Sequence record: PZ386972.1
Reading direction: 5' to 3' (one strand)
Source: a phage
Length of the DNA: 64,000 nucleotides
A program made the position numbers and the translations under genes. Position 1 is the first letter of the stretch; each line of letters begins with the position of its first letter. The notes beneath the pieces were generated by a model, which was given only the letters and a program-made list of their open reading frames with translations, did not search any database and had not been told where the DNA came from. Of this stretch, positions 3,566-55,675 are shown in pieces.

Positions 3566-4198
3566 ATGACACAAGCTGCTATTGACTATAACAAGTTAAA
3601 ATCAGCACCGGTTCATTTAGATGCTTATATTAAATCTATTGATAGCGAATCCAAAGAGGGTGTTGTAAAAATACGTGGATTCGCTAATACAATTAGTAAA
3701 GATCGCGCTGGTGATGTAATCCCTGCTTCGGCATGGAAAACATCTAATGCACTTGCTAACTACATGAAAAACCCGATTATTCTTTTCGGACACGACCATC
3801 GTCGTCCAATCGGCAAGTGTATTGATCTTAACCCTACTGAAATGGGTCTCGAAATCGAATGCGAGATCTATGAAAGTTCTGATCCGGCTATCTTTTCACT
3901 AATTAAAAACGGTGTACTGAAAACTTTTAGTATCGGATTCCGCTGCCTAGATGCAGAGTGGGATGAAGCTACTGATATATTTATTATTAAAGATTTAGAA
4001 CTATACGAAGTTTCGGTAGTTTCTGTACCTTGTAATCAGGACTCGACCTTCAATCTCGCTAAGAGCATGAATGGTCATGATTATACTGAATGGCGTAAAT
4101 CTTTTACTGCAATAAGTTCTAAAGCTGTCCCAGCTCAAGAACGTAATCTTTCTGAACTAGAAAAACTTGCGATAGCTTTAGGCTACGTTAAAGAATAA
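3566..4198 (+). CDS. prohead maturation protease
   Basis: 210-aa ORF between decoration and capsid genes; size and position of an HK97-type prohead protease. Confidence 0.75.
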   Translation: MTQAAIDYNKLKSAPVHLDAYIKSIDSESKEGVVKIRGFANTISKDRAGDVIPASAWKTSNALANYMKNPIILFGHDHRRPIGKCIDLNPTEMGLEIECEIYESSDPAIFSLIKNGVLKTFSIGFRCLDAEWDEATDIFIIKDLELYEVSVVSVPCNQDSTFNLAKSMNGHDYTEWRKSFTAISSKAVPAQERNLSELEKLAIALGYVKE

Positions 4199-4215: not shown

Positions 4216-5592
4216 ATGACTATTGATATTAATAAGCTGAAAGAAGAACTTGGTCTGGGTGATCTGGCTAAATCTCTGGAAGGTCTGACCGCTGCTCAGA
4301 AAGCTCAGGAAGCTGAACGTATGCGTAAAGAGCAGGAAGAAAAAGAACTGGCTCGTATGAATGATCTGGTTTCTAAAGCAGTTGGCGAAGATCGTCAGAA
4401 GCTAGAAGAAGCTCTGGAACTGGTTAAATCCCTGGATGAAAAATCCAAGAAGAGCGCAGAACTGTTTGCACAGACTGTAGAAAAACAGCAGGAAACTATT
4501 GTTGGTCTTCAGGACGAAATCAAATCTCTGCTGGCAGCTCGTGAAGGGCGTTCCTTCGTCGGTGATAGCGTAGCTAAAGCACTGTACGGTACTCAAGAAA
4601 ACTTTGAAGACGAAGTGGAGAAACTGGTTCTTCTGTCCTACGTGATGGAAAAAGGTGTATTTGATACCGAACATGGCCAGAGACACCTGAAAACTGTAAA
4701 CCAGTCCTCCTCAGTAGAAGTTTCTAGTGAAAGCTATGAAACTATTTTCTCCCAGCGTATTATTCGTGACCTGCAGAAAGAACTAGTAGTTGGTGCTCTG
4801 TTTGAAGAACTGCCAATGTCCAGCAAAATTCTTACTATGCTGGTTGAACCAGATGCTGGTAAAGCTACTTGGGTAGATGCCGCTACTTACGGTACTGATG
4901 CTACTACTGGTAATGAAGTTAAAGGCGCTCTTAAAGAGATCAGTTTCAAAACTTACAAACTGGCTGCTAAATCCTTCATTACTGATGAAACTGAAGAAGA
5001 TGCAATCTTCTCCTTGCTGCCACTGCTTCGTAAGCGTCTGATTGAAGCACATGCTGTTTCTATCGAAGAAGCTTTCATGACTGGTGATGGTTCTGGTAAG
5101 CCGAAAGGTCTGCTGACTCTTGCTAGTGAAGACAGTGCTAAAGTTATTACTGAAGCTAAAGCTGATGGTTCTGTTCTGGTAACTGCTAAAACTATCTCTA
5201 AACTGCGTCGTAAATTGGGCCGTCATGGTCTGAAACTGAGCAAACTGGTACTGATCGTATCTATGGATGCTTATTACGATCTGCTGGAAGATGAAGAATG
5301 GCAGGATGTTGCCCAGGTTGGTAATGATGCTGTTAAACTGCAAGGTCAGGTTGGTCGTATTTACGGTCTGCCGGTTGTAGTTTCTGAGTACTTCCCGGCT
5401 AAAGCTACCTCCGCAGAGTTCGCAGTTATTGTTTACAAAGATAACTTCGTAATGCCACGTCAGCGTGCTGTTACTGTTGAACGTGAGCGCCAAGCTGGTA
5501 AACAGCGTGATGCGTACTACGTTACTCAGCGTGTTAACCTGCAACGTTACTTTAATAATGGCGTTGTATCTGGTGCTTACGCTGCATCTTAA
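4216..5592 (+). CDS. major capsid protein precursor with N-terminal coiled-coil scaffold-like domain (pb8-like)
   Basis: 458-aa ORF; charged coiled-coil N-terminal ~150 aa then capsid-like body; followed by strong terminator. Confidence 0.85.
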   Translation: MTIDINKLKEELGLGDLAKSLEGLTAAQKAQEAERMRKEQEEKELARMNDLVSKAVGEDRQKLEEALELVKSLDEKSKKSAELFAQTVEKQQETIVGLQDEIKSLLAAREGRSFVGDSVAKALYGTQENFEDEVEKLVLLSYVMEKGVFDTEHGQRHLKTVNQSSSVEVSSESYETIFSQRIIRDLQKELVVGALFEELPMSSKILTMLVEPDAGKATWVDAATYGTDATTGNEVKGALKEISFKTYKLAAKSFITDETEEDAIFSLLPLLRKRLIEAHAVSIEEAFMTGDGSGKPKGLLTLASEDSAKVITEAKADGSVLVTAKTISKLRRKLGRHGLKLSKLVLIVSMDAYYDLLEDEEWQDVAQVGNDAVKLQGQVGRIYGLPVVVSEYFPAKATSAEFAVIVYKDNFVMPRQRAVTVERERQAGKQRDAYYVTQRVNLQRYFNNGVVSGAYAAS

Positions 5593-5611
5593 TACAGGCT
5601 TTTCAGCCGAT

Positions 5612-5640
5612 AAGGAGAGCTTCGGCTCTCCTTTTTTATT
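5612..5640 (+). terminator. rho-independent terminator after capsid gene
   Basis: GGAGAGC-ttcg-GCTCTCC hairpin followed by TTTTTTATT. Confidence 0.8.
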
Positions 5641-5651
5641 GGGAAAAATAA
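5636..5651 (+). other. conserved post-terminator motif TTATTGGGAAAAATAA, copy 1, abutting ATG at 5652
   Basis: near-identical copies at 10641-10658 and 14372-14389. Confidence 0.5.
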
Positions 5652-6164
5652 ATGCAAATCATCACAGCCGAAGATTATAGATTATATGGTGGTTTAAAAC
5701 GACCTGAATTAGAATCTGGTGTAGAAATGATGATTACTGCTGCCAATGCGCTGATCACGAGCCTTCTAGGCATGGATGATGCTGATGCGGTAGACCAGTT
5801 AATCAATACAAAACCTACACGTAGGAAATATTTTCTGAGCTCACCATCTGCTACCTCCGTAACTAAAGTGACGATTAACGATAATGAGATTGACCCAGAG
5901 CAGTATAAGCTATACTCTGATGGTATTATCCTTCTCAAATTTAATCCTCCAGAAGGTTATATGGATGTAGCATATACACAAGGTGGATTCAATCCAATAC
6001 CTGAAGATCTCAAACTTGCAGCATGTATGCTAGTAGATCATTGGCACAAACAAGATTATCGCCAAGCTAAAACAATTGGTGGTGAAACAGTAACCTTCAA
6101 TAATACTAAATCTGGTATTCCAGAGCATATTCGTACTATTATTGAAGTATATAGGAGAGTATAA
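5652..6164 (+). CDS. head completion / head-tail adaptor protein (putative)
   Basis: 170-aa ORF immediately downstream of capsid terminator in structural operon; assignment by synteny only. Confidence 0.45.
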   Translation: MQIITAEDYRLYGGLKRPELESGVEMMITAANALITSLLGMDDADAVDQLINTKPTRRKYFLSSPSATSVTKVTINDNEIDPEQYKLYSDGIILLKFNPPEGYMDVAYTQGGFNPIPEDLKLAACMLVDHWHKQDYRQAKTIGGETVTFNNTKSGIPEHIRTIIEVYRRV

Positions 6165-6931
6165 TGTCTCTTTCTGATCTAGCTAGACAAATTATTAAAG
6201 AGCAGCTAGATACTGCAAGTCGATCTGAAAACAATAAGAATACTGTTGTATACTCTGTTGAAACAGGATTAAAAGATCCTACCAGAGATGGTACTGTTGC
6301 TCAAGTATCTTTTAAGTTTTCAAAACCTGTATCACAAGATCTCCTTAATATTAGAACAGCTTCTATATTAAAAGCTGTATCCTCTAGTTTAGATCTTTCT
6401 GGAGATTTAGGTGCTCTAGAGAACTTAATACAAGCAACCGCTGGTAAAAAATCCTCAGTAGGTAAAAAACGTTCTACTGGTAGAGTGCAGGTAAATTTTG
6501 GTGATCCTAGTGATGTTGAAGATGGATATTCTGGTGCAGTAACAGGTGCTTCTGGACGTTTCGTGTCTAACAGCAATATGAAGGTTATACTGGAGATAGT
6601 TGCTAAAGAATACTTAATAAAGGATATGAAAAAAGCGGGAGCACCACTAAAATTTAGGACCGGTCGCTTTGCAAACTCTTTAAAAATTAAAGATGTTATG
6701 CTTCGTGATTCTGAAACTAGTAAAGGCTCCCCTGAATTGAACGTAACATATAATTATATGACTCGTCCATATTCTGTGTTCAATCCGGCAGTATCTACAT
6801 ACAGAAGATTATCTCTACGACCTTATCCTGGCGCTAGAAACCCACAAAAACTTATTGGTGAGGCTATAGCAAAAGCTGCAAGAGACCTGATTCACTCCAG
6901 ATATAAAATTAAGGTTAATCAAGGAACCTAA
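6164..6931 (+). CDS. structural protein of head-tail joining region (hypothetical)
   Basis: 255-aa ORF, start overlaps previous stop; synteny only. Confidence 0.45.
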   Translation: MSLSDLARQIIKEQLDTASRSENNKNTVVYSVETGLKDPTRDGTVAQVSFKFSKPVSQDLLNIRTASILKAVSSSLDLSGDLGALENLIQATAGKKSSVGKKRSTGRVQVNFGDPSDVEDGYSGAVTGASGRFVSNSNMKVILEIVAKEYLIKDMKKAGAPLKFRTGRFANSLKIKDVMLRDSETSKGSPELNVTYNYMTRPYSVFNPAVSTYRRLSLRPYPGARNPQKLIGEAIAKAARDLIHSRYKIKVNQGT

Positions 6932-6934
6932 TAA

Positions 6935-7420
6935 ATGGACCACAGAACAAGTATTGCACAAGCTATGGTTGACCGAATCTCTAAACAAATGGATGGTTCT
7001 CAACCTGACGAATATTTTAATAATCTATACGGAAACGTTTCTCGTCAAACTTATAAATTTGAGGAAATACGAGAGTTTCCTTATGTAGCAGTTCATATCG
7101 GAACTGAAACTGGGCAGTATCTTCCTTCAGGCCAACAGTGGATGTTTTTAGAACTTCCAATCCTGGTGTACGATAAAGAGAAAACAGACATTCAAGAGCA
7201 ACTTGAAAAACTCGTAGCGGATATAAAAACCGTTATTGACACAGGTGGAAATTTAGAATATACTGTTAGTAAACCTAATGGATCGACCTTCCCATGTGAG
7301 GCAACTGATATGATCATTACATCAGTTAGTACAGATGAGGGTCTACTGGCCCCATATGGTTTAGCAGAAATAAATGTAACAGTGAGGTATCAGCCTCCAC
7401 GTAGGTCACTTCGCAGATAA
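6935..7420 (+). CDS. tail completion / terminator protein (putative)
   Basis: 161-aa ORF immediately upstream of tail tube gene; synteny only. Confidence 0.4.
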   Translation: MDHRTSIAQAMVDRISKQMDGSQPDEYFNNLYGNVSRQTYKFEEIREFPYVAVHIGTETGQYLPSGQQWMFLELPILVYDKEKTDIQEQLEKLVADIKTVIDTGGNLEYTVSKPNGSTFPCEATDMIITSVSTDEGLLAPYGLAEINVTVRYQPPRRSLRR

Positions 7421-7446
7421 GTTACAGATTAGGAGAAAATAATTAA

Positions 7447-8841
7447 ATGTCTTTACAACTATTACGTAATACTCGAATCTTCGTGTCTACGGTTAAGACT
7501 GGTCATAATAAGACCAACACGCAAGAGATTCTAGTTCAGGATGATATTTCTTGGGGTCAGGACAGTAACTCAACAGATATTACTGTTAATGAGGCTGGTC
7601 CGCGTCCAACTCGTGGTTCTAAACGTTTTAACGACTCTTTAAACGCAGCTGAGTGGAGTTTCTCTACCTATATCCTGCCATATAAAGACAAAACTACTAA
7701 CAAACAAATTGTTCCTGACTATATGTTATGGCATGCACTTTCTAGTGGTAAAGCTATTAACCTAGAAGGTAATACGGGGGCACACAATAACGAAGCTAAC
7801 TTTATGGTTAACTTCAAAGATAACTCTTATCACGAGTTAGCAATGTTACACATTTATATTCTGACTGATAAAGCATGGAGTTATATCGATTCCTGTCAGA
7901 TTAATCAAGCAGAAGTTAACGTTGATATTGAAGATATTGGCCGTGTAACTTGGTCTGGTAATGGTAATCAGCTTATTCCTCTGGATGAGCAACCATTTGA
8001 CCCAGATGAAATAGGTATTGATGATGAAACTTACATGACTATCCAGGGTTCTTACATCAAGAACAAATTAACGATCCTTAAGATCAAGGACATGGATACC
8101 AATAAGTCTTACGACATACCAATTACCGGTGGTACTTTTACTATTAACAACAACATTACTTATCTAACACCTAATGTAATGTCCCGTGTTACTATTCCAA
8201 TTGGTTCCTTTACTGGTGCTTTTGAATTAACTGGTTCATTAACTGCTTATCTGAATGATAAATCTCTTGGTTCTATGGAACTGTATAAAGATCTTATCAA
8301 AACTCTGAAGGTAGTTAACCGCTTCGAAATAGCTCTAGTACTTGGTGGCGAGTATGAGGATGAACGTCCTGCAGCTATTCTGGTAGCCAAACAAGCGCAC
8401 GTTAATATTCCTACGATTGAGACTGATGATGTACTTGGTACATCAGTAGAGTTTAAGGCTATTCCGTCAGAGCTGGATGCAGGTGATGAGGGTTACTTAG
8501 GCTTCTCTAGTAAGTATACCAAAACAACTATTAATAACTTGATTGTTAATGGTAATGGTGCTACTGATGCTGTAACTGCAATTACTGTTAAATCTGCTGG
8601 TAATGTTACTACAGTAAACACTTCTGCCACTCTTCAGATGAGTGTTGAAGTTACTCCTTCTTCCGCAGAGAATAAGGAAGTTACTTGGGCTATCACTGCT
8701 GGTGATGCAGCTACTATCAGTGCAACAGGATTACTAAAAGCAGATGTTAGTAAAACTGGTGCAGTAACTGTAGAAGCTACTGCTAAAGATGGTTCTGGAG
8801 TTAAAGGCACTAAACAGATTACTGTAACAGCAGGTGGTTAA
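7447..8841 (+). CDS. tail tube protein with C-terminal Ig-like (Big_2-like) domain (pb6-like)
   Basis: 464-aa ORF; C-terminal TAITVKSAGNVTT...VTVEATAKDGSG...ITVTAGG Ig-like segment; RBS AGGAGAAAA upstream. Confidence 0.75.
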   Translation: MSLQLLRNTRIFVSTVKTGHNKTNTQEILVQDDISWGQDSNSTDITVNEAGPRPTRGSKRFNDSLNAAEWSFSTYILPYKDKTTNKQIVPDYMLWHALSSGKAINLEGNTGAHNNEANFMVNFKDNSYHELAMLHIYILTDKAWSYIDSCQINQAEVNVDIEDIGRVTWSGNGNQLIPLDEQPFDPDEIGIDDETYMTIQGSYIKNKLTILKIKDMDTNKSYDIPITGGTFTINNNITYLTPNVMSRVTIPIGSFTGAFELTGSLTAYLNDKSLGSMELYKDLIKTLKVVNRFEIALVLGGEYEDERPAAILVAKQAHVNIPTIETDDVLGTSVEFKAIPSELDAGDEGYLGFSSKYTKTTINNLIVNGNGATDAVTAITVKSAGNVTTVNTSATLQMSVEVTPSSAENKEVTWAITAGDAATISATGLLKADVSKTGAVTVEATAKDGSGVKGTKQITVTAGG

Positions 8842-8845
8842 TTAA

Positions 8846-9742
8846 ATGTTTTATTCTCTCATGCGAGAGTCTAAAATAGTTATTGAGTATGATGGTAGAG
8901 GGTATCATTTCGATGCCCTCTCTAACTATGATGCTAGTACGTCTTTTCAAGAGTTCAAAACTCTTAGACGTACTATTCATAATCGTACCAACTATGCAGA
9001 CTCTATTATTAATGCTCAAGATCCTTCATCTATTTCATTGGCAATAAATTTCAGTACTACGCTTATTGAATCTAATTTCTTTGATTGGATGGGATTCACG
9101 CGTGAGGGAAATTCTTTATTTTTGCCAAGAAATACTCCCAATATTGAACCTATTATGTTCAATATGTATATTATTAATCATAATAATAGCTGTATTTATT
9201 TCGAAAACTGTTATGTATCAACAGTTGATTTTTCTTTAGATAAAAGTATACCGATCCTAAATGTTGGTATTGAGTCTGGAAAATTCTCTGAAGTATCTAC
9301 TTTCCGCGATGGATATACAATTACACAAGGTGAAGTACTTCCATATAGTCCTCCAGCTGTGTATACTAATAGCGCGCCATTGCCCGCATTAATTTCAGCA
9401 TCTATGTCCTTCCAGCAACAATGTTCTTGGAGAGAAGATAGAAGTATATTTGATATAAATAAAGTTTATACTAATAAACGAGCTTATGTCAATGAGATGA
9501 ATGCTTCCGCAACGCTAGCTTTCTATTACGTTAAGAGATTGGTAGGAGATAAGTTCTTGAATCTAGACCCTGAAACAAGAACTCCACTAATTATTAAAAA
9601 TAAATATGTTTCTATAACATTCCCTTTAGCACGTATTTCAAAACGCCTAAACTTCTCAGATTTGTATCAGGTAGAGTATGATGTAATACCAACTGCTGAT
9701 TCAGATCCTGTAGAAATAAACTTCTTTGGAGAAAGAAAATAA
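8846..9742 (+). CDS. tail-associated hypothetical protein
   Basis: 298-aa ORF between tail tube and chaperone genes. Confidence 0.45.
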   Translation: MFYSLMRESKIVIEYDGRGYHFDALSNYDASTSFQEFKTLRRTIHNRTNYADSIINAQDPSSISLAINFSTTLIESNFFDWMGFTREGNSLFLPRNTPNIEPIMFNMYIINHNNSCIYFENCYVSTVDFSLDKSIPILNVGIESGKFSEVSTFRDGYTITQGEVLPYSPPAVYTNSAPLPALISASMSFQQQCSWREDRSIFDINKVYTNKRAYVNEMNASATLAFYYVKRLVGDKFLNLDPETRTPLIIKNKYVSITFPLARISKRLNFSDLYQVEYDVIPTADSDPVEINFFGERK

Positions 9743-10146
9743 TGATTAACTTAAAAGATATTACTCTAGAAACTCGTACGGTCACCCTTTCATACCCAGG
9801 TATGCCTAACTTTAAGCTAGAGCTTAATTATATGTCTCGTGCTACTTCTAAGCGAGTTATCACTTCTGCTAAGCGTGACGAGTGGGTTAACGGTACTTTG
9901 ATTCAGGTACAGGATGATGATAAGTTCATTGAAGCCTTCGTTGATGCTGCGATTAAAGGTTGGACTGGTTTGACTGTAGGTGACGTTGAAAAACTGATGC
10001 TGATTGAAACAGATGCTGATCCTGCTACGGAAGTTCCATTTAGTCGTGATAATGCTGTAATGCTTATGCAGAATTCTGCTGCGTTTGATTCTTGGATCAA
10101 CCAGACAGTGTTCCACTTAGACACTTTTCGTAGCTCAAAAGCGTAA
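9742..10146 (+). CDS. tail assembly chaperone (putative, gpG-like position)
   Basis: 134-aa acidic ORF two genes upstream of tape measure gene. Confidence 0.4.
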   Translation: MINLKDITLETRTVTLSYPGMPNFKLELNYMSRATSKRVITSAKRDEWVNGTLIQVQDDDKFIEAFVDAAIKGWTGLTVGDVEKLMLIETDADPATEVPFSRDNAVMLMQNSAAFDSWINQTVFHLDTFRSSKA

Positions 10147-10207
10147 AGAATTACTAGATGCTGTTGCTGATTTTGCAGATAAATGTATTAAAAGCTCAGC
10201 ATCTAAA

Positions 10208-10576
10208 ATGACTAAACAACAATATTTAATACTTTGTGAATCAATGGGTATAGAGCCTGATCCTAAGGCTATGCCTGTTGAACTTGAAGACTTTCCACCT
10301 ATTGTAGCTATTAGTATGAATATTTATAATAGTCTAATTGACTGTTTCATACCGGGTGACTTTCCTATTTTTATAGGTAAAGACAAAGCTGCTTTAGGTG
10401 TTTTATTTGATATTTATGGGATTACTGATCCTATAGAAAAAGAATTTGTTCTACACATTATCAATATATTTGATGCTAAAGCTGTAGATGCTGCACGTAA
10501 ACGTGCTGAGAAGCATAAACCGCAAAACGGAAGGATTCCTAACGTTAAGCCACATGCTAAATCTCGAGCACGGTAA
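10208..10576 (+). CDS. hypothetical protein in chaperone position upstream of tape measure
   Basis: 122-aa ORF; basic C-terminus; no obvious frameshift link to previous ORF. Confidence 0.4.
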   Translation: MTKQQYLILCESMGIEPDPKAMPVELEDFPPIVAISMNIYNSLIDCFIPGDFPIFIGKDKAALGVLFDIYGITDPIEKEFVLHIINIFDAKAVDAARKRAEKHKPQNGRIPNVKPHAKSRAR

Positions 10577-10611
10577 AAGTTTCCTCCAATGGGCGTTCCA
10601 CGATGAGGCTT

Positions 10612-10642
10612 GGCTCTGGGTGATTTGCCCAGAGCCTTTTTT
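10612..10642 (+). terminator. rho-independent terminator upstream of tape measure gene
   Basis: GGCTCTGGG-tgatttg-CCCAGAGCC hairpin followed by TTTTTT. Confidence 0.75.
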
Positions 10643-10658
10643 ATTGGGAAAAATAAAA
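10641..10658 (+). other. conserved post-terminator motif TTATTGGGAAAAATAAAA, copy 2, abutting ATG at 10660
   Basis: same motif as 5636-5651. Confidence 0.5.
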
Positions 10659-10659
10659 C

Positions 10660-13600
10660 ATGACTGATAAGCTAATACGAGAACTACTAATAGACGTTAA
10701 ACAGAAGGGGGCAACTCGTACTGCAAAGTCTATTGAAAACGTATCTGATGCGTTAGAAAACGCTGCTGCTGCTTCCGAACTGACAAATGAGCAGTTAGGT
10801 AAAATGCCCAAAACCCTTTACTCCATTGAGAGGGCAGCGGATAGAGCAGCGAAAAGTCTTACTAAAATGCAAGCAAGCCGAGGTATGCTTAGTGTTACTA
10901 AATCTATAAATGATATAGGAGCTAAGTTAGATGATCTTGCTATCCAACTTATTGAAGTAACAGATAAGCTAGAAATTGGATTCGATGGAGTTTCTAGATC
11001 TGTTAAAGCAATGGGTAATGATGTTGCAGCTGCAACAGAGAAAGTTCAAGATAGATTGTATGACACCAATAGAGTTTTAGGCGGTACAGCTAGAGGTTTT
11101 AATGATACTGCTGGTGCCGCTGGTAGAGCTTCTAGAGCTATTGGTAATACTTCTGGTTCAGCGCGTGGTGCAACTCGTGATTTTGCAGCAATGGCTAAGA
11201 TCGGTGGTAGTTTACCTATTATGTACGCAGCCCTTGCTTCCAACATCTTCGTTTTGCAATCTGCATTTGAACAACTTAAACTAGGTGATCAGCTAAATCG
11301 TCTAGAAAAATTTGGTGTTATAGTAGGTACTCAGACAGGTACTCCTGTTCAGACCCTTGCTAGATCACTACAAGAAGCTGCTGGATATGCTATTTCTTTT
11401 GAGGAAGCAATGAGACAGGCATCTTCAGCATCTGCTTATGGATTTGATGCCGAACAACTTAATAAATTTGGTTTAGTAGCTCGTCGTGCGGCTGCTGTTC
11501 TTGGCGTTGATATGACTGATGCACTTAACCGTGTAATTAAGGGCGTATCTAAACAAGAAATCGAACTTCTGGATGAACTTGGTGTCACCATTCGTCTTAA
11601 TGACGCATATGCTGATTATGTTAAACAGTTAAACGCTGCAAACACAGGTATAACATATAATATTAATAGCCTTACTACCTTCCAGAAACAGCAAGCATAC
11701 GCTAACGCGGTAATTGCTGAATCTACTAAGCGGTTTGGCTACCTAGATGAAGTACTACGTGCAACTCCATGGGAGCAATTTGCTGCTAATGCAGATGCTG
11801 CACTAAGAAAAATACAACAAGCTGCTGCCAAGTATTTAGGGCCAGTAATTGATGCTATCAACACAGTATTTTATACATCTCAGGCTTCTATATCTGCTGA
11901 GGCAGCTAGAGCTCAAGAAAAAACTAATAGACAGATAGATCCTAATAATGTAGGTGCTGTTGCTTTAAGTTTAGCTGCTTCTGAAGAAGGCTATAATAAA
12001 GCTCTAGATATGTATAAGGAATCTCTTGATAAGCGTAATAAGCTAAAATCTGAGTTCGATAAACGAATGGAACAGGCAGATTTCTATACAAAACTAGCTA
12101 TACGTCAAGTTGGTGAAGGTATTCCTGTTGGTCTTGCAGCAGCAGGTGCTTCGGAGGCCAATAAGCAATTTGTAGCAGAAACTGCAGCTATGGGTCTACA
12201 AGTAACTAGACTTGGTAAGGAAGTAGAGGATTCTACAGAGAATCTCAATGCTTGGAAATCAGCGTATCAAGCTGCTGGGGCTGCTGCTGCAAAGGCTAGT
12301 CCAGAGTTTCAGAAGCAAATTAATCTCCAGAGAGATACTACTGATCCTGATGCTGTATACGATTTTAACTCTACTGTATTAAAAGGACTAACTGAGCAGC
12401 AGAAAGCGTACAATCAGACTAAGAAAACTGCTAGTGACTTAGCTAATGACTTTCAAAATATAGCTAGTAGCACAGATACTGCTGCTAAAACCAGTGCAAC
12501 TTTTGAAGAGGTAATTAAAAACATATCGTCTCTATCCGCAGGAACTGGTAAGAGTGCTGATGATTATGTTAAAAGCCTCAACTTAGGGTTTAACACTCTG
12601 TCTGAAATGAAAACTGCGTCTCAGGCCTTATCTGAGTACGTTAAACTAACTGGTAATGAGACTAAGAACCAGTTAGCAGTTCAACAGAAGATAGCGGATG
12701 TATATAACCAAACTAAGGATAAAGAAAAAGCACAGGAAGCTGGTAGACGTTTAGAGTTGCAACAGTTAGAAGAGCAAGAAACTGCTTTACGCCGTGTTCT
12801 TCAAACAAACCAGGGAAATAAAGCTGTTGAGAAAGAAATTGAAAAAATTCAGCTGGAGAAACTTAAACTTACCAATCAAGGTATGGAAGCTCAGAAGAAG
12901 GTCAAGAATTACACAGATAAAATTCTTGGTGTAGATCGTGAGATAGCTCTCTTAAATAACCGTACTATGACAGATACTCAGTATCGTCTAGCACAGTTAA
13001 ATCTTGAATTGACCATTGAAAAAGAGAAGTATGAATGGTATACAAAACAAGCTGATAAACAGAAAGAGGCAGAACAGTCTAGACGTGCTCAAGCCCAAAT
13101 TGAACGTGAAATCTGGAAATTCCGTCAGGATCAGATTGCTTCAATGGCTGCTGGTAGAGAGGAAGAACAGCAAAGACAATTTACTGCTAAACCATTAATG
13201 GGAAATGCGGAGCGCTTACAGGAACAGCTAAAATTATATGAAGACTTAAAGCAGAAAACATTAGGTAATGCTGCGGCACAAGCGGAGTATAATAAAAAGA
13301 TAGCTGAAACTAGGGCACAACTAGCAGGTTTAAGAGCACAGAGAAATGCGGATATGCAAACTTCTGTTGGGTCTTCTTTAGGTGCTGTGTACACTCCTAC
13401 AACTGGGCTATCTGGAGAGGATAAAGATTTTGCTGATATGCAGAATAGGATGTCTTCATATGACCAAGCAATTTCTAAACTATCTGAGTTAAATTCCGAA
13501 GCTACTGCTGTAGCTCAAAGCATGGGTAATTTAACTAATGCTATGATTCAGTTCTCCATGGGATCTTTAGATACTACTTCCACGATCGCAGCAGGTATGC

Positions 13601-14340
13601 AGACTGTAGCCTCTATGATTCAATATAGTACTAGCCAACAAGTTAGTGCAATTGATCAGGCTATTGCAGCAGAACAGAAACGAGATGGTAAATCTGAAGC
13701 CTCTAAAGCTAAACTGAAAAAGTTAGAAGCTGAAAAGTTAAAAATCCAGCAAGATGCAGCTAAGAAACAAATTATTATCCAGACAGCAGTAGCAGTAATG
13801 CAAGCGGCAACAGCTGTACCATACCCGTTCTCTATTCCTTTGATGGTGGCGGCAGGTTTAGCAGGTGCCTTAGCTCTTGCTCAAGCATCTTCTGCGTCTG
13901 GCATGTCTTCTATTGCAGATTCTGGAGCAGATACTACTCAGTATCTAACTCTAGGTGAGCGACAGAAGAACGTTGATGTATCTATGCAAGCTAGTTCAGG
14001 AGAACTATCCTACTTACGTGGTGATAAGGGTATTGGTAATGCCAATTCATTTGTTCCGCGTGCTGAGGGTGGTATGATGTACCCTGGAGTAAGCTATCAA
14101 ATGGGTGAGCATGGTACCGAAGTAGTAACTCCTATGGTTCCTATGAAAGCCACACCTAATGATCAGCTTTCCGATGGATCAAAGACTACCTCTGGAAGAC
14201 CAATCATTCTGAATATTAGCACAATGGATGCTGCTAGCTTTAGAGATTTTGCATCGAATAATAGCACTGCTTTAAGAGATGCCGTGGAACTGGCTCTTAA
14301 TGAGAATGGATCCACCCTTAAATCTCTTGGTAATATGTAA
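10660..14340 (+). CDS. tail tape measure protein (pb2-like)
   Basis: 1226-aa ORF, largely alpha-helical/coiled-coil with Ala/Gln-rich low complexity and hydrophobic segment near C-terminus. Confidence 0.85.
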   Translation: MTDKLIRELLIDVKQKGATRTAKSIENVSDALENAAAASELTNEQLGKMPKTLYSIERAADRAAKSLTKMQASRGMLSVTKSINDIGAKLDDLAIQLIEVTDKLEIGFDGVSRSVKAMGNDVAAATEKVQDRLYDTNRVLGGTARGFNDTAGAAGRASRAIGNTSGSARGATRDFAAMAKIGGSLPIMYAALASNIFVLQSAFEQLKLGDQLNRLEKFGVIVGTQTGTPVQTLARSLQEAAGYAISFEEAMRQASSASAYGFDAEQLNKFGLVARRAAAVLGVDMTDALNRVIKGVSKQEIELLDELGVTIRLNDAYADYVKQLNAANTGITYNINSLTTFQKQQAYANAVIAESTKRFGYLDEVLRATPWEQFAANADAALRKIQQAAAKYLGPVIDAINTVFYTSQASISAEAARAQEKTNRQIDPNNVGAVALSLAASEEGYNKALDMYKESLDKRNKLKSEFDKRMEQADFYTKLAIRQVGEGIPVGLAAAGASEANKQFVAETAAMGLQVTRLGKEVEDSTENLNAWKSAYQAAGAAAAKASPEFQKQINLQRDTTDPDAVYDFNSTVLKGLTEQQKAYNQTKKTASDLANDFQNIASSTDTAAKTSATFEEVIKNISSLSAGTGKSADDYVKSLNLGFNTLSEMKTASQALSEYVKLTGNETKNQLAVQQKIADVYNQTKDKEKAQEAGRRLELQQLEEQETALRRVLQTNQGNKAVEKEIEKIQLEKLKLTNQGMEAQKKVKNYTDKILGVDREIALLNNRTMTDTQYRLAQLNLELTIEKEKYEWYTKQADKQKEAEQSRRAQAQIEREIWKFRQDQIASMAAGREEEQQRQFTAKPLMGNAERLQEQLKLYEDLKQKTLGNAAAQAEYNKKIAETRAQLAGLRAQRNADMQTSVGSSLGAVYTPTTGLSGEDKDFADMQNRMSSYDQAISKLSELNSEATAVAQSMGNLTNAMIQFSMGSLDTTSTIAAGMQTVASMIQYSTSQQVSAIDQAIAAEQKRDGKSEASKAKLKKLEAEKLKIQQDAAKKQIIIQTAVAVMQAATAVPYPFSIPLMVAAGLAGALALAQASSASGMSSIADSGADTTQYLTLGERQKNVDVSMQASSGELSYLRGDKGIGNANSFVPRAEGGMMYPGVSYQMGEHGTEVVTPMVPMKATPNDQLSDGSKTTSGRPIILNISTMDAASFRDFASNNSTALRDAVELALNENGSTLKSLGNM

Positions 14341-14346
14341 TATTGG

Positions 14347-14374
14347 AGGAGGACTTTATGTCCTCCTTTTCTTT
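14347..14374 (+). terminator. rho-independent terminator after tape measure gene
   Basis: AGGAGGAC-tttat-GTCCTCCT hairpin followed by TTTTCTTT. Confidence 0.75.
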
Positions 14375-14389
14375 ATGGAAAAATAAAAA
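14372..14389 (+). other. conserved post-terminator motif TTTATGGAAAAATAAAAA, copy 3
   Basis: same motif family as 5636 and 10641. Confidence 0.45.
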
Positions 14390-14393
14390 TTTC

Positions 14394-14422
14394 TTGATAA
14401 AATTTTCCAATACTATTATAAT
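14394..14422 (+). promoter_or_regulatory. sigma70-consensus promoter (TTGATA, 17 bp, TATAAT) inside late operon, upstream of distal tail gene
   Basis: hexamers and spacing read directly; followed by AAAGAGGAGAAA RBS and ATG at 14450. Confidence 0.55.
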
Positions 14423-14449
14423 ATTGTTATTAAAGAGGAGAAATTAACT

Positions 14450-15064
14450 ATGAGACTACCAGATCCATACACGAACCCAGAATACCCAGGGTTAGGTTTT
14501 GAAAGCGTCAACGTAGTAGATAATGACCCTATGATTCGTGATGAATTACCTAATGGTAAAGTCAAAGAGGTTAAAATATCTGCTCAATACTGGGGAATTA
14601 ATATCTCATACCCGGAACTTTTCCCAGATGAATATGCGTTCCTAGATTCTAAAATTTTAGAATATAAAAGAACTGGAGATTATCTAGAAGTACTTCTACC
14701 TCAGTATGAAGCATTTAGAGTACGTGGTGATACTAAAAGTGTTAATATACCAGCAGGACAGAAAGGTTCCCAGATTATACTAAATACTAATGGAACCTTA
14801 ATAGGACTACCAAAAGCTGGAGACCTATTTAAGTTATCCAGTCACCCAAAAGTCTATAAAATAACAAACTTTACTAGCTCAGGAAATGTATGGAGCTTAT
14901 CCCTATACCCTGACCTATTTATTACTACTACGGGTAGTGAAAAACCAGTTTTTAATGGTATCCTATTTAGAACTAAGCTAATGAATGCTGATTCTTTTGG
15001 TTCTACATTAAATAACAATGGTACTTACTCTGGTATTTCACTTTCCTTGAGGGAAAGTCTATGA
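14450..15064 (+). CDS. distal tail protein (Dit, pb9-like)
   Basis: 204-aa ORF directly downstream of tape measure, upstream of large baseplate protein. Confidence 0.55.
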   Translation: MRLPDPYTNPEYPGLGFESVNVVDNDPMIRDELPNGKVKEVKISAQYWGINISYPELFPDEYAFLDSKILEYKRTGDYLEVLLPQYEAFRVRGDTKSVNIPAGQKGSQIILNTNGTLIGLPKAGDLFKLSSHPKVYKITNFTSSGNVWSLSLYPDLFITTTGSEKPVFNGILFRTKLMNADSFGSTLNNNGTYSGISLSLRESL

Positions 15065-30649: not shown

Positions 30650-30679
30650 ATTATACTAGATTTCGAGAGAATTTAGCAA
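30650..30679 (-). promoter_or_regulatory. early promoter (TTGCTA, 18 bp, TATAAT)
   Basis: hexamers read on minus strand; duplicated 20-bp core AATTTATGTATATATTATAC also at 30737-30756. Confidence 0.5.
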
Positions 30680-30762
30680 CTAAAATTTTTATTTTTCTGC
30701 TTAGGACTTTCTTATCAATCCGAAACTTTCTCTCTCAAATTTATGTATATATTATACATCAT

Positions 30763-32115
30763 TTATGAGCTGTTGCCAAATGCAATTTTAGCTAATTGAA
30801 CTGCTTTCTCAGGAGTCATGGTAATAGTTTTCCACCCGTTGTTACGATATACTGCCATACGTCCAGAAGCCTGTCTTAGTCCAGTGCCGCCTTTCATAAT
30901 TAGATCTACAACAATAGGGTCGAGTTTACCATCGACAATACGTTGAACACGACCTGCAAGCTGTTCAATGAGAGACTCATTATTAATAAGACTTCCCATT
31001 ATTAAACAAGACAACTCATTAAGAGAAATACCCTCAGAGAAGATACTTTGAGCTGCTGCAAGTACACAAGGGCCGCCTTTTGCTATATCTTCCTGAATTT
31101 TTAATCGGTCATCCAAGTGGGTTGCCCCTATAATTTCATGTGTTGTAACACCACGCTGTGCGAGAGCTTCTAGTACTGTTTGGATTAACTCTGTTCTGTC
31201 ACTTACAATGAGTACTTTATGCCCCATATTCACGTATAAATGTGCTAAGTTTATAATGGTTTCTCGATACTCAGGATGATTATATACATCATTAGCACGT
31301 AATGCCCACGGTACGTTTTGGTTTCCTGATAACTCAACAGGCACGGAGTACCTATGGATTGTAGGTGCAACAGTATTATTAACTGGTGGGCTAAATATCT
31401 TATATCCGAAGAAATCTTTGAACATAACCTGTAAACCATCTTTTCGTTTTAGTGTACCGGATAGTCCAATTTTATAGCGAGCACATGATATTTCTAGGAA
31501 ATTAGTGAAAGTTGTAGCCACACAATGGTGAACCTCATCAACTATAACAGTACCGAATACTTTAGAAAGATTATTCGCATGTTTATTCACTGTTTGAATA
31601 TTACTGACTACAATTGGTGGATCAATATTGTATTTCCCAGAACCTATAATGCCCGGTTCAAACCCAAACCATTTACGAACTTCTGCCGCCCACATTTCAC
31701 GAATGGATGTATTCGTACAGATTACCAAAGTTTTCTGGCCAAATTTATACGCAAGTGCAAGGGCTAGGATAGTTTTACCAAACCCAGGCTTACCATTAAT
31801 AATACAGGTATCATCGCACTCTTCATATATTGGGAGCTGGTCTTCTTCACGCAGCTTGAACTTAGGTTTTGGTATATCTACCGGAGCTAATGTACGTTTA
31901 TCTACTAATTCGTATTTTACTCCTTTAGCATCTAATAAATCCAGACGCGTGATAGGAATCCACTTAATCTCTTTAGCAACAACACCACTATTCTTATACA
32001 TAATAGGGTATTTACTAGTCATTGTCTCTATGTGATAAGTGGTTTGCTTACTACAATAATCCCAAAGTTCATCATCGGGCTTGAAATAGGCTTTATTAGA
32101 TATAACAACCTTCAT
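30763..32115 (-). CDS. SF2 DNA helicase (DEAH-type; D10-like branch-migration helicase)
   Basis: 450 aa; Walker A GKPGFGKT and IVDEVHH DExH box. Confidence 0.8.
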   Translation of the reverse strand: MKVVISNKAYFKPDDELWDYCSKQTTYHIETMTSKYPIMYKNSGVVAKEIKWIPITRLDLLDAKGVKYELVDKRTLAPVDIPKPKFKLREEDQLPIYEECDDTCIINGKPGFGKTILALALAYKFGQKTLVICTNTSIREMWAAEVRKWFGFEPGIIGSGKYNIDPPIVVSNIQTVNKHANNLSKVFGTVIVDEVHHCVATTFTNFLEISCARYKIGLSGTLKRKDGLQVMFKDFFGYKIFSPPVNNTVAPTIHRYSVPVELSGNQNVPWALRANDVYNHPEYRETIINLAHLYVNMGHKVLIVSDRTELIQTVLEALAQRGVTTHEIIGATHLDDRLKIQEDIAKGGPCVLAAAQSIFSEGISLNELSCLIMGSLINNESLIEQLAGRVQRIVDGKLDPIVVDLIMKGGTGLRQASGRMAVYRNNGWKTITMTPEKAVQLAKIAFGNSS

Positions 32116-38060: not shown

Positions 38061-38828
38061 TTATTCAGCAGCCGCAGCTTTTGCATCCAGTTTAGCACGC
38101 TTAGCGGCACCATCATAGTCCTTAGCAACCAGACCACGACGAGACAGCATAGATTTAACACCGCGCTCAGATTTACCAGTTTTCTCAGCGATCTCAGCAA
38201 CAGTCATGTTAGCCAGATCCAGACCTTCTAACAGATCTTCACGAGTTTTAGCACTTGAGGTTTCCTGTACCGGCATAGCAGCGATACGACCTTCACGAAG
38301 CAGGCTCAGAGCTTTACCACGGATCTGCTTGATATTACGACCGAAGTGAGCAGCGATAGCTTCAATAGTAGCACCAGCAACAACCTGATTAACAAAATCA
38401 GTTTCTTCATCCGGAGTAAAGGAACGAACAGCAGCAGCTTTTTCAGTTGGTTTAACAGAAGCAGTCATTTCCAGACTCAGGATCTTACCCTGTACCTGTT
38501 TAGCACCGAACTGACCACCAGCTACAGCAGCAGCGATTTCAGCATAGGTATACTGACCAGCATGAGCGTTCAGGAAATCAACCAGTTCAGCTTCCTGCTC
38601 AGGAGTCCACGGGGATTTCTGTACTTCGTTAGCTTTCTGTACTTCAAAACCTTCTTTACGCAGTTTAGAGCCAACAGAGCGAGCAGTAACATCTTTGCCA
38701 GTTTCAGCAGCCAGTTCAGTAGCGATAGCAGCTACTTGTTCTTGAGAGATTACAGAAACACCCAGAGCAGTGGCTTTTGCTTTCAGAGACTCGGTTACAC
38801 CTTCTACGTTCCAGTTCAGTTTAGACAT
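38061..38828 (-). CDS. D5-like DNA-binding protein with repeated helix-turn-helix-like modules
   Basis: 255 aa; three internal repeats of a WT/FTPE...EIA...G module; Ala/Lys-rich C-terminus. Confidence 0.55.
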   Translation of the reverse strand: MSKLNWNVEGVTESLKAKATALGVSVISQEQVAAIATELAAETGKDVTARSVGSKLRKEGFEVQKANEVQKSPWTPEQEAELVDFLNAHAGQYTYAEIAAAVAGGQFGAKQVQGKILSLEMTASVKPTEKAAAVRSFTPDEETDFVNQVVAGATIEAIAAHFGRNIKQIRGKALSLLREGRIAAMPVQETSSAKTREDLLEGLDLANMTVAEIAEKTGKSERGVKSMLSRRGLVAKDYDGAAKRAKLDAKAAAAE

Positions 38829-41110: not shown

Positions 41111-41150
41111 ATTTATAAAGAAAAAGCCAAGAACTAGGCATTCTTGGCTT
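41111..41150 (-). terminator. rho-independent terminator after PC4-like gene
   Basis: AAGCCAAGAA / TTCTTGGCTT stem followed by TTTTCTTTAT on minus strand. Confidence 0.7.
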
Positions 41151-41442
41151 TGAGTTCTTCAGCTCGTTTCTGTACTTCATGTAAAACCTCAGATTCGCTA
41201 AGAATCTGTGTAAACGCATAGAAAAGCTGTGATGTTGTTTCTAGGGTGTAAGGAAAAGAGAAGCCAGATTTCGTTGGAAACCATTCATCATTAATATCAA
41301 GAAGCCAGTAACGAATACCCATGTATAGATTCCCACGAAATTCAGATACTGTTAATCTTACTTGTTCCCCCTCCTTCTCCCAAAGTATGATGGACTGGTC
41401 ATCAACGTGTCCTTCATAGTTTTGATTTACCTGTTCGCTCAT
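41134..41442 (-). CDS. PC4-like ssDNA-binding protein
   Basis: 102 aa; VRLTVSEFRGNLYMGIRYW resembles PC4 fold core; a T5 PC4 homolog is described in the literature. Confidence 0.55.
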   Translation of the reverse strand: MSEQVNQNYEGHVDDQSIILWEKEGEQVRLTVSEFRGNLYMGIRYWLLDINDEWFPTKSGFSFPYTLETTSQLFYAFTQILSESEVLHEVQKRAEELKAKNA

Positions 41443-49920: not shown

Positions 49921-49955
49921 ATAAAATAAAAGCCAGGTCGACTAGCAACCCGGCT
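49921..49955 (-). terminator. hairpin terminator after nrdD
   Basis: AGCCAGGT / ACCCGGCT imperfect stem followed by TTTTATTTTAT on minus strand. Confidence 0.5.
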
Positions 49956-55638: not shown

Positions 55639-55647
55639 TAAAAACAA

Positions 55648-55675
55648 GGAGATCTTCGGGTCTCCTTTTTCTTTG
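55648..55675 (+). terminator. hairpin terminator after nrdA
   Basis: GGAGATC...GGTCTCC stem followed by TTTTTCTTT. Confidence 0.6.

Follow-up and report, generated by a model that had tools for sequence, protein, structure and literature searches.

A short motif recurs three times within the late operon of a T5-like phage, each time directly behind a transcription terminator, and this arrangement raises the question of whether the motif is one regulatory element or several signals lying side by side. The window analysed here, a stretch of 64,000 nt from record PZ386972.1, is a Tequintavirus (T5-like phage) genome, and its closest relative is Salmonella phage FGS009, with 98% identity to the window. 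A preliminary description of this DNA had placed the motif after three hairpin terminators and had suggested a late-promoter element, an antitermination or processing signal, or a translational role. The three sites are indeed present, with their coordinates corrected as follows:

5636-5652, + strand: motif copy 1, TTATTGGGAAAAATAAA, whose last base is also the first base of the ATG at 5652
10641-10657, + strand: motif copy 2, a 17-mer identical to copy 1 (TTATTGGGAAAAATAAA), with an ATG at 10660, 2 nt past the motif
14373-14389, + strand: motif copy 3, TTATGGAAAAATAAAAA, one G shorter than copies 1 and 2 and not followed by an ATG

The recurrence of this motif is real and far above chance. 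Specifically, the exact 11-mer GGAAAAATAAA has three matches in the window against 0.07 expected, a count reached in none of 100 shuffles, and copies 1 and 2 share 21 of 21 nt (TTTTTTATTGGGAAAAATAAA; 0.02 expected). Copy 3 is set apart from these two by an indel and by the different sequence that follows it. Each copy begins 3-5 nt past a strong + strand hairpin. A search of the window at relaxed stringency returned no extra copies, only unrelated matches with one to three mismatches, and the ~41.5 kb of FGS009 lying beyond the window had none. The motif is limited to three late-operon terminators within ~105 kb (the window plus the rest of FGS009). In an IMG/VR scan, no T5-sized contig (~104-122 kb) contained more than two copies, ~5 kb apart, of the 17-mer, and single matches also occurred in shorter or unrelated contigs. 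No Rfam family was matched.

With respect to genomic context, the three sites fall within a late operon whose relevant landmarks are:

4216-5592: major head protein gene, upstream of terminator 1
5652, + strand: ATG of the head-tail adaptor gene, downstream of terminator 1
7236-7264, + strand: PJ5-type late promoter, TTGACA-17-TATACT (promoter scan), corresponding to the T5 'promoter P-J 5' feature
10208-10576: tail assembly chaperone ORF, upstream of terminator 2
10660-14340, + strand: tape measure gene, between terminators 2 and 3
14450, + strand: ATG of the distal tail protein gene, with SD GAGGAG at 14435-14440, driven by a PG25-type promoter

Along the operon, terminator 1 separates the capsid genes from low-copy connector genes. 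PJ5, located inside the tail terminator gene and ahead of the major tail protein gene, then starts transcription anew for the tail tube and chaperones; terminator 2, the tape measure gene, terminator 3 with PG25, and the tail-tip genes complete the order. Both PJ5 and PG25 are sigma70 late promoters that are active in vivo, the late activity of PG25 having been observed by primer extension (PMC7472727). This layout is kept in the enterobacterial relatives examined (Escherichia, Salmonella, Klebsiella and Proteus phages) and through to Vibrio phages.

At all three sites, a stable GC-rich stem-loop on the coding strand is accompanied by a U-tract, the arrangement expected of an intrinsic terminator, and the end of this tract makes up the 5' part of the motif:

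5612-5633, + strand: terminator 1 hairpin, AAGGAGAGC-UUCG-GCUCUCCUU (terminator scan; -14.5 kcal/mol)
5632-5640, + strand: terminator 1 U-tract, TTTTTTATT, forming the 5' half of copy 1
10612-10636, + strand: terminator 2 hairpin (terminator scan; -19.1 kcal/mol)
10637-10645, + strand: terminator 2 U-tract, TTTTTTATT, forming the 5' half of copy 2
14345-14369, + strand: terminator 3 hairpin (terminator scan; -15.7 kcal/mol), followed by the tail TTTTCTTTAT

All three hairpins are annotated as rho-independent terminators, labelled 'putative', in the T5 record AY543070. The terminator 1 hairpin is identical in sequence in four genera (including Sugarland, Eos and Stubb), shows no compensatory changes, and differs in the Vibrio phages; this invariance could point to sequence-specific recognition of the hairpin. 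At sites 2 and 3 the hairpin sequence differs and its position is constant in all genera examined, with compensatory stem changes at terminator 2 and, at site 3, another hairpin and T-tract in the same place in every genus. The tails are conserved as well, as T6ATT is retained at site 1 in Sugarland, Stubb, Eos and Vibrio phage JSF12, and the terminator 2 U-tract is conserved across genera. In terms of direct measurements, the searchable literature yielded no usable data on T5 late transcript ends, read-through, transcriptomes or late-gene translation.

Two sets of reading frames in these regions were considered as coding and rejected, namely short ORFs that FGS009 has annotated over terminators 2 and 3, and an extension of the chaperone ORF by read-through. 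Their frames are not kept between genera, and 1-nt indels occur. Separately, a nucleotide-conserved CCUCC...GGGCGUUCCACGA block (10580-10611) lies in the 3' UTR just 5' of terminator 2. It occurs once in the window, and RNAalifold returned for it only an invariant 2-bp GG/CC stem, with no covariation.

For the 3' part of copies 1 and 2, our analysis is most consistent with a role in translation initiation. The features concerned are:

5641-5651, + strand: ribosome-binding region of the head-tail adaptor gene, with SD GGGA at 5641-5644 and a 7-nt spacer AAAATAA (anti-SD duplex -4.2 kcal/mol)
10646-10659, + strand: ribosome-binding region of the tape measure gene, with SD GGGA at 10646-10649 and a 10-nt A-rich spacer (anti-SD duplex -4.2 kcal/mol)

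In both copies, a block able to pair with the 16S rRNA 3' end is placed 5-10 nt before the start codon. GGGA is the sole purine block ahead of both ATGs, and these ATGs are the earliest possible starts of their ORFs. The predicted pairing is weak, at -4.2 kcal/mol versus -6.6 to -9.3 kcal/mol for the capsid, tail-tube and Dit genes. The arrangement follows the phage-wide ribosome-binding profile, which is G-rich from -14 to -8 and A-rich from -5 to -1, and AAATAA-like spacers are found in 9 of 70 ORFs, such as ggagaaaataattaaATG at 7447 and ttggagaaaaataataATG at 38828(-).

Comparison with relatives supports this assignment. Klebsiella, Proteus and Eos phages carry GGGT or GGGTGA at the position orthologous to site 1 and GGA, GGATGA or AGGTGA at that of site 2, and Vibrio phages carry GGAGG, AGGAGG or AAGGAG at the former and AGGAG or TGGAG at the latter. 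The purine block always lies directly 3' of the hairpin and T-tract and 5-10 nt ahead of the ATG, such that the position of the SD is kept while its letters drift within SD space. Within Tequintavirus the number of Gs differs (GGG, GG, AGG), and at site 2 the spacer varies in length toward its 3' end. Annotated records point the same way: a ribosome-binding site is marked at the GGGT of site 1 in Sugarland and Stubb, and independent annotators placed 'terminator' next to 'ribosome_binding_site' at site 2 in Sugarland, Slocum and Spivey. In T5 itself, site 2 is interrupted immediately behind TTTTTTATT by a 750-bp ORF that contains a CapR homology domain, so that the 3' half of copy 2 is missing, and the tape measure gene there uses another ribosome-binding site, CAGGAAAACATTAGATG. 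Taken together, these observations indicate that the 3' part of copies 1 and 2 is the ribosome-binding region itself, predicted to consist of a weak SD and an A-rich spacer.

The preliminary description was right that the first two copies lack sigma70 hexamers, as the promoter scan gave no promoter-like + strand site at 4763-6225 or at 9682-14376, and it was also right that an ATG directly follows the motif in two cases. Copies 1 and 2 are not promoters for the adjacent genes, because the ATG begins 0-2 nt past the motif and the only possible SD lies inside it. The suggested translational role is partly right for these two copies, and not for copy 3, which no ATG follows.

Copy 3 belongs instead to a promoter region:

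14373-14393, + strand: copy 3 together with an A5TA5T3 block, at ~-56 to -36 of the PG25-type promoter
14394-14422, + strand: core of the PG25-type sigma70 promoter, TTGATA-17-TATAAT, with 11 of 12 consensus matches

The copy itself lies at ~-52 to -42 of this promoter, inside the T5 'promoter P-G 25' feature, which the T5 record puts directly after the third terminator hairpin. An A/T-rich stretch is present at ~-40 to -60 of this active sigma70 promoter, and the copy forms part of it. All strong promoters of the window carry an A-rich block around -45 to -38, and the A5TA5T3 block GAAAAATAAAAATTT recurs at an unrelated promoter, 30679(-), immediately before the -35 hexamer. The UP-element consensus reportedly set out by Estrem in 1998 has a proximal subsite AAAAAARNR and a distal subsite AWWWWWTTTTT; against this consensus, ATAAAAATT (14383-14391) agrees with the proximal subsite at ~7 of 9 positions, and TTTATGGAAAA is a poor match to the distal one. 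The orthologs of copy 3 read GGAATTTATAAAA and GGTTTTTTAAAAAG, and outside Tequintavirus the terminator-promoter layout is kept at site 3 whereas GGAAAAATAAA is not. Most likely, the block is contacted by the alpha subunits of RNA polymerase in the manner of an UP element. The proposal of a late-promoter element therefore stands in part, since copy 3 lies in the upstream A/T-rich portion of the known PG25, and fails for copies 1 and 2.

We consider it likely that the motif is a composite of ordinary, abutting expression signals in three compact intergenic regions of a T5-type late operon. Under this proposal, its 5' part (TTAT or TTATT) would be the end of an intrinsic terminator U-tract. The 3' part of copies 1 and 2, GGGAAAAATAA..., would be the site of translation initiation, for the head-tail adaptor at copy 1 and for the tape measure protein at copy 2, composed of the weak SD GGGA, an unstructured A-rich spacer of 7-10 nt and the ATG, and the 3' part of copy 3, GGAAAAATAAAAATTTC, would be the A/T-rich block that PG25, a strong sigma70 late promoter, carries at ~-52 to -36. 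GGGA would then matter for adaptor and tape measure expression, and the exact letters of AAAAATAAA would not, provided that A/T content is kept. Since no promoter separates terminator and ATG, the adaptor and tape measure genes would be expressed only from read-through transcripts. We infer that the terminators are leaky and that the ribosome-binding sites of copies 1 and 2 are used; a leaky terminator combined with a weak SD likely lowers the output of low-copy proteins encoded behind the abundant capsid and tail-tube genes, as a stoichiometry argument suggests. The motif is not a single regulatory element, and a signal shared by the late operon as a whole does not fit with ribosome-binding regions at copies 1 and 2, a promoter upstream block at copy 3 and the loss of half of copy 2 in T5.

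A counterpoint to this explanation is that 21 of 21 identical positions, and a T6ATTGG junction that both sites share throughout the family, are more than a terminator tail and a weak ribosome-binding site need. This surplus identity of copies 1 and 2 may go back to shared descent, to gene conversion or to some additional constraint. Across 19-22 Tequintavirus loci, the intergenic regions are 96-100% conserved, versus 66-88% at third codon positions, which points to selection without indicating its target.

Among the alternatives, it is unlikely that the U-tract-GGGAAA-A-tract junction is an RNA module in its own right that tunes translation of the low-copy genes to terminator read-through, either through pairing of UUUAUU with AAUAAA in the read-through RNA, which would show the SD in a hexaloop, or through recruitment of Hfq or S1 by the hairpin, U-tail and (ARN)n tract. 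Copies 1 and 2 do contain a perfect 6-bp inverted repeat, TTTATT-GGGAAA-AATAAA (TTTAT-GGAAAA-ATAAA in copy 3), with predicted mini-hairpins of -1.5 to -2.8 kcal/mol, of which the one at site 2 is present in the 110-nt minimum-energy fold, and RNAalifold gives the same U/A helix in six genera; such a module would also account for the 21-nt identity and the T6ATTGG conservation, which lack another explanation. Nonetheless, the helix is made up of A-U and G-U pairs only, with marginal stability, of a kind that arises from any T-tract followed by an A-rich ribosome-binding site, its A-tract is broken or shifted in Eos, Stubb, Vibrio 70E37-4 and PG07, and copy 3 has no SD role. We likewise hold it improbable that the hairpin-U6AUU-GG(G)A-A-rich junction at the two sites in Demerecviridae genera constitutes a dedicated terminator-RBS module. 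If it did, its exact sequence could be read by Hfq, S1 or a phage protein or act as a U-tract/A-tract clamp, translation of adaptor and tape measure protein would be coupled to terminator read-through, and the module might cooperate with the conserved block upstream of terminator 2.

That the 17-mer is a dedicated cis-element for a phage or host factor, acting as a late promoter of non-canonical type, in antitermination or in RNA processing, appears very improbable, even with the motif exclusive to three late-operon terminators and strongly conserved within Tequintavirus. A further point in its favour is that the way in which T5 controls its late transcription is only partly understood (PMC7472727). 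A transcript starting at copy 1 or 2 would, however, be deprived of its sole SD, and the -10 and -35 elements are absent there. Antitermination, as raised in the preliminary description, was rejected because an RNA signal of this kind would have to precede the terminators, whereas the motif comes after them and is untranscribed when termination is decided; nor are there boxA/boxB-like features or any structure beyond the marginal A-U helix, and the Rfam search gave no match. In addition, T5 does without the 3' half of copy 2, drift between genera is SD-like (GGGA to GGGT, GGTGA or GGAGG), and copy 3 is not kept outside the genus and recurs in sequence at the terminator-less promoter 30679(-). 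Judged by sequence and position, a new late promoter or antitermination signal is thus without apparent support. We also give very little credence to the idea that the likeness of copy 3 is a coincidence of an AT-rich genome and that copies 1 and 2 descend by shared ancestry or gene conversion from one terminator-tail/RBS cassette, with no common function. The indel and unlike downstream sequence of copy 3, its divergent orthologs, and the other tails normally carried by terminator-promoter modules elsewhere in the window are in keeping with it, whereas three exact 11-mers are hard to blame on composition alone and the site 1 and site 2 hairpins bear no relation to each other, so that a recent duplication of a whole cassette did not take place. 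This last proposal concerns origin and is compatible with the motif being a composite of abutting signals.

The component signals of that composite are already known, the terminators and PG25 from the T5 record and the ribosome-binding sites from records of relatives, and no new regulatory principle is implied. What is gained is a clarified layout of the T5-type late operon for transcription and translation, which helps the engineering of T5-like phages, and a caution that a striking repeated motif can arise from two ordinary signals packed together, here a terminator tail and either a ribosome-binding site or a promoter upstream block.

In relation to known systems, the motif shares only late-operon location and AT-richness with the lambda nut/qut, HK022 put and T4 late TATAAATA elements; unlike these, it lies downstream of terminators and lacks boxA/boxB, put-like structure and TATAAATA. 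The late promoters of T5 are of the ordinary sigma70 type (PMC7472727). Like a typical SD with an A/U-rich spacer, copies 1 and 2 place a 16S-complementary purine block 7-10 nt before the ATG, with an A-rich spacer as in most genes of this phage and canonical GGAGG in distant orthologs, although GGGA is weak and abuts a terminator. Copy 3 resembles the upstream A-tract or UP element of strong sigma70 promoters (Estrem et al. 1998; Aiyar et al. 1998; both cited in PMC2412878) in its proximal part, with the difference that its distal half (TTTATGG) is terminator tail and does not match the distal UP subsite. The closest parallels in layout are intra-operon terminators such as T7 T-phi after the major capsid gene and those of LUZ7 with sequential read-through, where, as here, a GC-rich hairpin and U-tract directly follow the most abundant structural genes and promoterless genes lie downstream. 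Inefficient terminators balance expression in T7 and LUZ7 (PMC9163698); partial read-through is presumed in the present phage, where, unlike in those phages, the SD of the next gene begins within 1-2 nt of the U-tract and one 21-nt junction serves at two sites.

The recurring motif of the late operon resolves into two kinds of site, whose component signals carry existing annotations in T5 and its relatives. In copies 1 and 2 a terminator tail runs into a ribosome-binding site (RBS); in copy 3 the tail leads into the upstream block of the late promoter PG25. The reading of the motif as one shared late-operon signal finds no support. Window positions 5000-15000 match 552 phage records, the best being Salmonella phage vB_Si_CECAV_FGS009 (Tequintavirus, Demerecviridae; 98% identity), and all three sites lie on the + strand within the late structural operon.

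Motif copies, preceding hairpins and flanking genes
Site 1, +: major head protein gene 4216-5592, then head-tail adaptor gene 5652-6164; hairpin 5612-5633 (-14.5 kcal/mol); copy 1 at 5636-5652, TTATTGGGAAAAATAAA, which ends on the first base of the ATG
Site 2, +: tail-assembly-chaperone ORF 10208-10576, then tape measure gene 10660-14340; hairpin 10612-10636 (-19.1 kcal/mol); copy 2 at 10641-10657, a 17-mer identical to copy 1; ATG at 10660
Site 3, +: tape measure gene, then distal tail protein (Dit) gene 14450-15064; hairpin 14345-14369 (-15.7 kcal/mol); copy 3 at 14373-14389, TTATGGAAAAATAAAAA, with one G fewer and no ATG after it

Each copy begins a few bases 3′ of its hairpin. The preliminary description was accurate in this placement and in the sequences, as well as in placing an ATG immediately after two copies (at 5652 and 10660) and in noting the absence of sigma70 hexamers at the first two, as our promoter scan found no promoters at sites 1 and 2. 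The search for further copies that it called for returned the exact 11-mer GGAAAAATAAA three times in 64 kb (0.07 expected), always at sites 1-3, and nothing comparable in the ~41.5 kb by which the genome of the closest relative extends beyond the window. Copies 1 and 2 share 21 identical nucleotides, TTTTTTATTGGGAAAAATAAA. Among IMG/VR contigs, those of T5 size carry at most two copies of the 17-mer, ~5 kb apart; other matches are single and lie in shorter or unrelated contigs. In the T5 record (AY543070) all three hairpins are labelled putative rho-independent terminators, with 'promoter P-G 25' directly 3′ of the third and 'promoter P-J 5' within T5.146, the position equivalent to TTGACA-17-TATACT at 7236 in the window. 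Transcripts from PJ5 and PG25 build up late, as seen by primer extension (Klimuk et al., PMC7472727).

With respect to copies 1 and 2, neither ORF has a possible start codon ahead of its ATG (at 5652 or 10660). The sole purine block preceding each ATG is GGGA, with spacers of 7 and 10 nt. Its calculated duplex with the 16S 3′ end is worth -4.2 kcal/mol; stronger Shine-Dalgarno (SD) sequences precede the capsid (-6.6), tail tube (-7.3) and Dit (-9.1 kcal/mol) genes. The A-rich spacer is the norm for this phage: the RBS profile of 70 ORFs is rich in G from -14 to -8 and in A from -5 to -1, and 9 of the 70 have AAATAA-like spacers, such as aggagaaaataattaaATG (tail tube gene) and ttggagaaaaataataATG at 38828(-). 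Members of Tequintavirus differ among themselves in the G count (GGG, GG, AGG) and at the spacer's 3′ end. In T5 itself, site 2 is interrupted precisely after TTTTTTATT by the 750-bp ORF T5.141, whose product has a CapR homology domain plus a treble-clef zinc finger; the tape measure gene there relies on an alternative RBS, CAGGAAAACATTAGATG. The type phage can therefore do without the specific 3′ half of copy 2. We also compared the position directly 3′ of the hairpin and T-tract, 5-10 nt upstream of the ATG, in other genera.

Sequence at the equivalent position in relatives
Sugarland (Klebsiella): site 1 GGGT; site 2 GGA
Eos: site 1 GGGTGA; site 2 GGATGA
Stubb (Proteus): site 1 GGGT; site 2 AGGTGA
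JSF12 (Vibrio): site 1 GGAGG; site 2 AGGAG
70E37-4 (Vibrio): site 1 AGGAGG (site 1 only compared)
PG07 (Vibrio): site 1 AAGGAG (site 1 only compared)
Chester (Vibrio): site 2 TGGAG (site 2 only compared)

Judged by their sequence, the blocks in all compared relatives are SD variants, which settles the RBS reading of copies 1 and 2. The Sugarland, Stubb, Slocum and Spivey records independently annotate a terminator and then immediately a ribosome_binding_site at these positions. The proposed translational role is partly right, for copies 1 and 2, on SD complementarity, spacing and the relatives' variants, but not for copy 3.

The promoter option is likewise partly right, applying to copy 3 and failing for copies 1 and 2. 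The PG25 core, TTGATA-17-TATAAT at 14394-14422, matches 11/12 consensus positions, and the 11-mer of copy 3 falls at about -52 to -42, within the annotated P-G25 feature. The 15-mer GAAAAATAAAAATTT is common to the copy 3 region and an unrelated promoter, 30679(-), where it lies directly 5′ of the -35 hexamer with no preceding terminator, and an A-rich stretch at around -45 to -38 is a feature of all strong promoters in the window. ATAAAAATT at 14383-14391 resembles the proximal subsite of the UP-element consensus reportedly described by Estrem et al. in 1998, a paper in the reference list of PMC2412878. Other genera retain the terminator-promoter arrangement with changed sequence: GGAATTTATAAAATTATC-TTGAAA in Sugarland, GGTTTTTTAAAAAGTTC-TTGATA in Eos and further different sequences in Vibrio phages. 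A weak promoter-like match at 14376-14403 (TGGAAA-16-TAAAAT, TG extension), which takes its -35 from the motif's TGGAAA and overlaps the PG25 -35, is probably a by-product of AT-richness. At 30650-30779(-), ATATACATAAAT lies downstream of both members of a tandem pair of strong promoters, TTGGCA-17-TATAAT and TTGCTA-18-TATAAT, and the second promoter is preceded by AGAAAAATAAAAATTTTAG, the A5TA5T3 block of copy 3.

Direct observations comprise the anatomy of hairpin plus U-tract, the complementarity of the SD and its distance from the ATG, the lack of promoters at sites 1 and 2, the placement of copy 3 within PG25 and a layout conserved across Demerecviridae. Identity to the window in 19-22 distinct Tequintavirus loci is 96-100% for the three intergenic regions and 66-88% for third codon positions of the flanking genes; this conservation takes in hairpins, motif and promoter alike, without setting the motif apart. 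Copies 1 and 2 agree at 21/21 positions, and sites 1 and 2 share a T6ATTGG junction across genera, both of which exceed the minimal functional requirement. TTTATT-GGGAAA-AATAAA is a perfect A-U inverted repeat that could form a marginal hairpin (-1.5 to -2.3 kcal/mol) presenting the SD within its loop; a functional role for such a hairpin is an improbable reading. The terminator 1 hairpin is identical in sequence in four genera.

Just upstream of terminator 2, nucleotide-level conservation of a non-coding block (10580-10608, TTTCCTCCAATGGGCGTTCCACGATGAGG) extends to Vibrio phages. In its longer form (10580-10611, TTTCCTCCAATGGGCGTTCCACGATGAGGCTT), between the chaperone stop codon and the terminator, it is conserved in Sugarland, Eos, Stubb, JSF12 and Chester, contains an anti-SD-like CCUCC and is single-copy in the window. 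The neighbouring minor tail protein (8846-9742), by contrast, has only ~26-30% identity in Vibrio phages and 26-57% across phages keeping the block. A 1-nt indel rules out a coding role, and a consensus structure found no covariation support among aligned relatives; the block could be a 3′-UTR RNA element or a protein-binding site. The chaperone ORF lacks an SD (-0.1 kcal/mol), and its frame, open from 10121, runs +1 relative to ORF 9742-10146 and shares the last 26 nt of that ORF. For JSF12 and Chester, too, the equivalent ORFs are annotated as overlapping in +1, and the 9742-10146/10121-10576 overlap is a candidate programmed frameshift of G/GT type.

Elsewhere in the window, terminator-then-promoter modules recur often, each a strong hairpin and T-tract, then TTGCTx-17-TATAAT within ~10-20 nt.

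Further terminator-then-promoter modules
41123-41151, -
49931-49955, -
55646-55667, +; hairpin AAGGAGATCTTCGGGTCTCCTT closely resembles terminator 1

A long hairpin without a T-tract (1327-1358, -17.5 kcal/mol) lies 3′ of the terminase large subunit gene, directly followed by a promoter-like TTTACA-17-TATACT (1377-1405). At site 1, relatives show a T13 instead of T6 tract (L014, ~3770-3790), TTATTATTAGG in place of TTATTGGG (L011, L016) and GG in place of GGG (L018, L022). ORFs with the CapR domain (PF21817) and treble-clef zinc finger adjoin late terminators in T5 (L024 9326-10078), L018 (3164-3736), L016 and L022, and are possibly homing-endonuclease-related; in T5 the inserted ORF takes the place of copy 2's 3′ half, and in three IMG/VR phages the ORF separates terminator 1 from the capsid stop codon. 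Two small hypothetical proteins of FGS009 (37 and 29 aa; L001 11553-11666 and 15357-15446, window ~10554-10667 and 14358-14447) span the motif together with terminators 2 and 3; other genera do not conserve these frames, and both proteins are probably gene-caller artefacts.

In terms of mechanism, terminators 1 and 2 may be leaky, in which case the adaptor, tail completion, tail terminator and tape measure proteins would be made only from read-through transcripts, with weak RBSs. This combination would reduce the yield of all four compared with the capsid and tail-tube proteins, which the T5 virion needs in hundreds of copies versus a handful for the low-copy proteins. PJ5 and PG25 restart transcription where higher levels are needed again. 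PHROG transfer labels a 61-aa ORF of FGS009 outside the window (L029 35214-35399) as a putative 'anti-termination protein Q'; it would matter only if read-through at the late terminators proves factor-dependent. Inefficient terminators that balance phage gene expression are documented for T7 and LUZ7 (PMC9163698).
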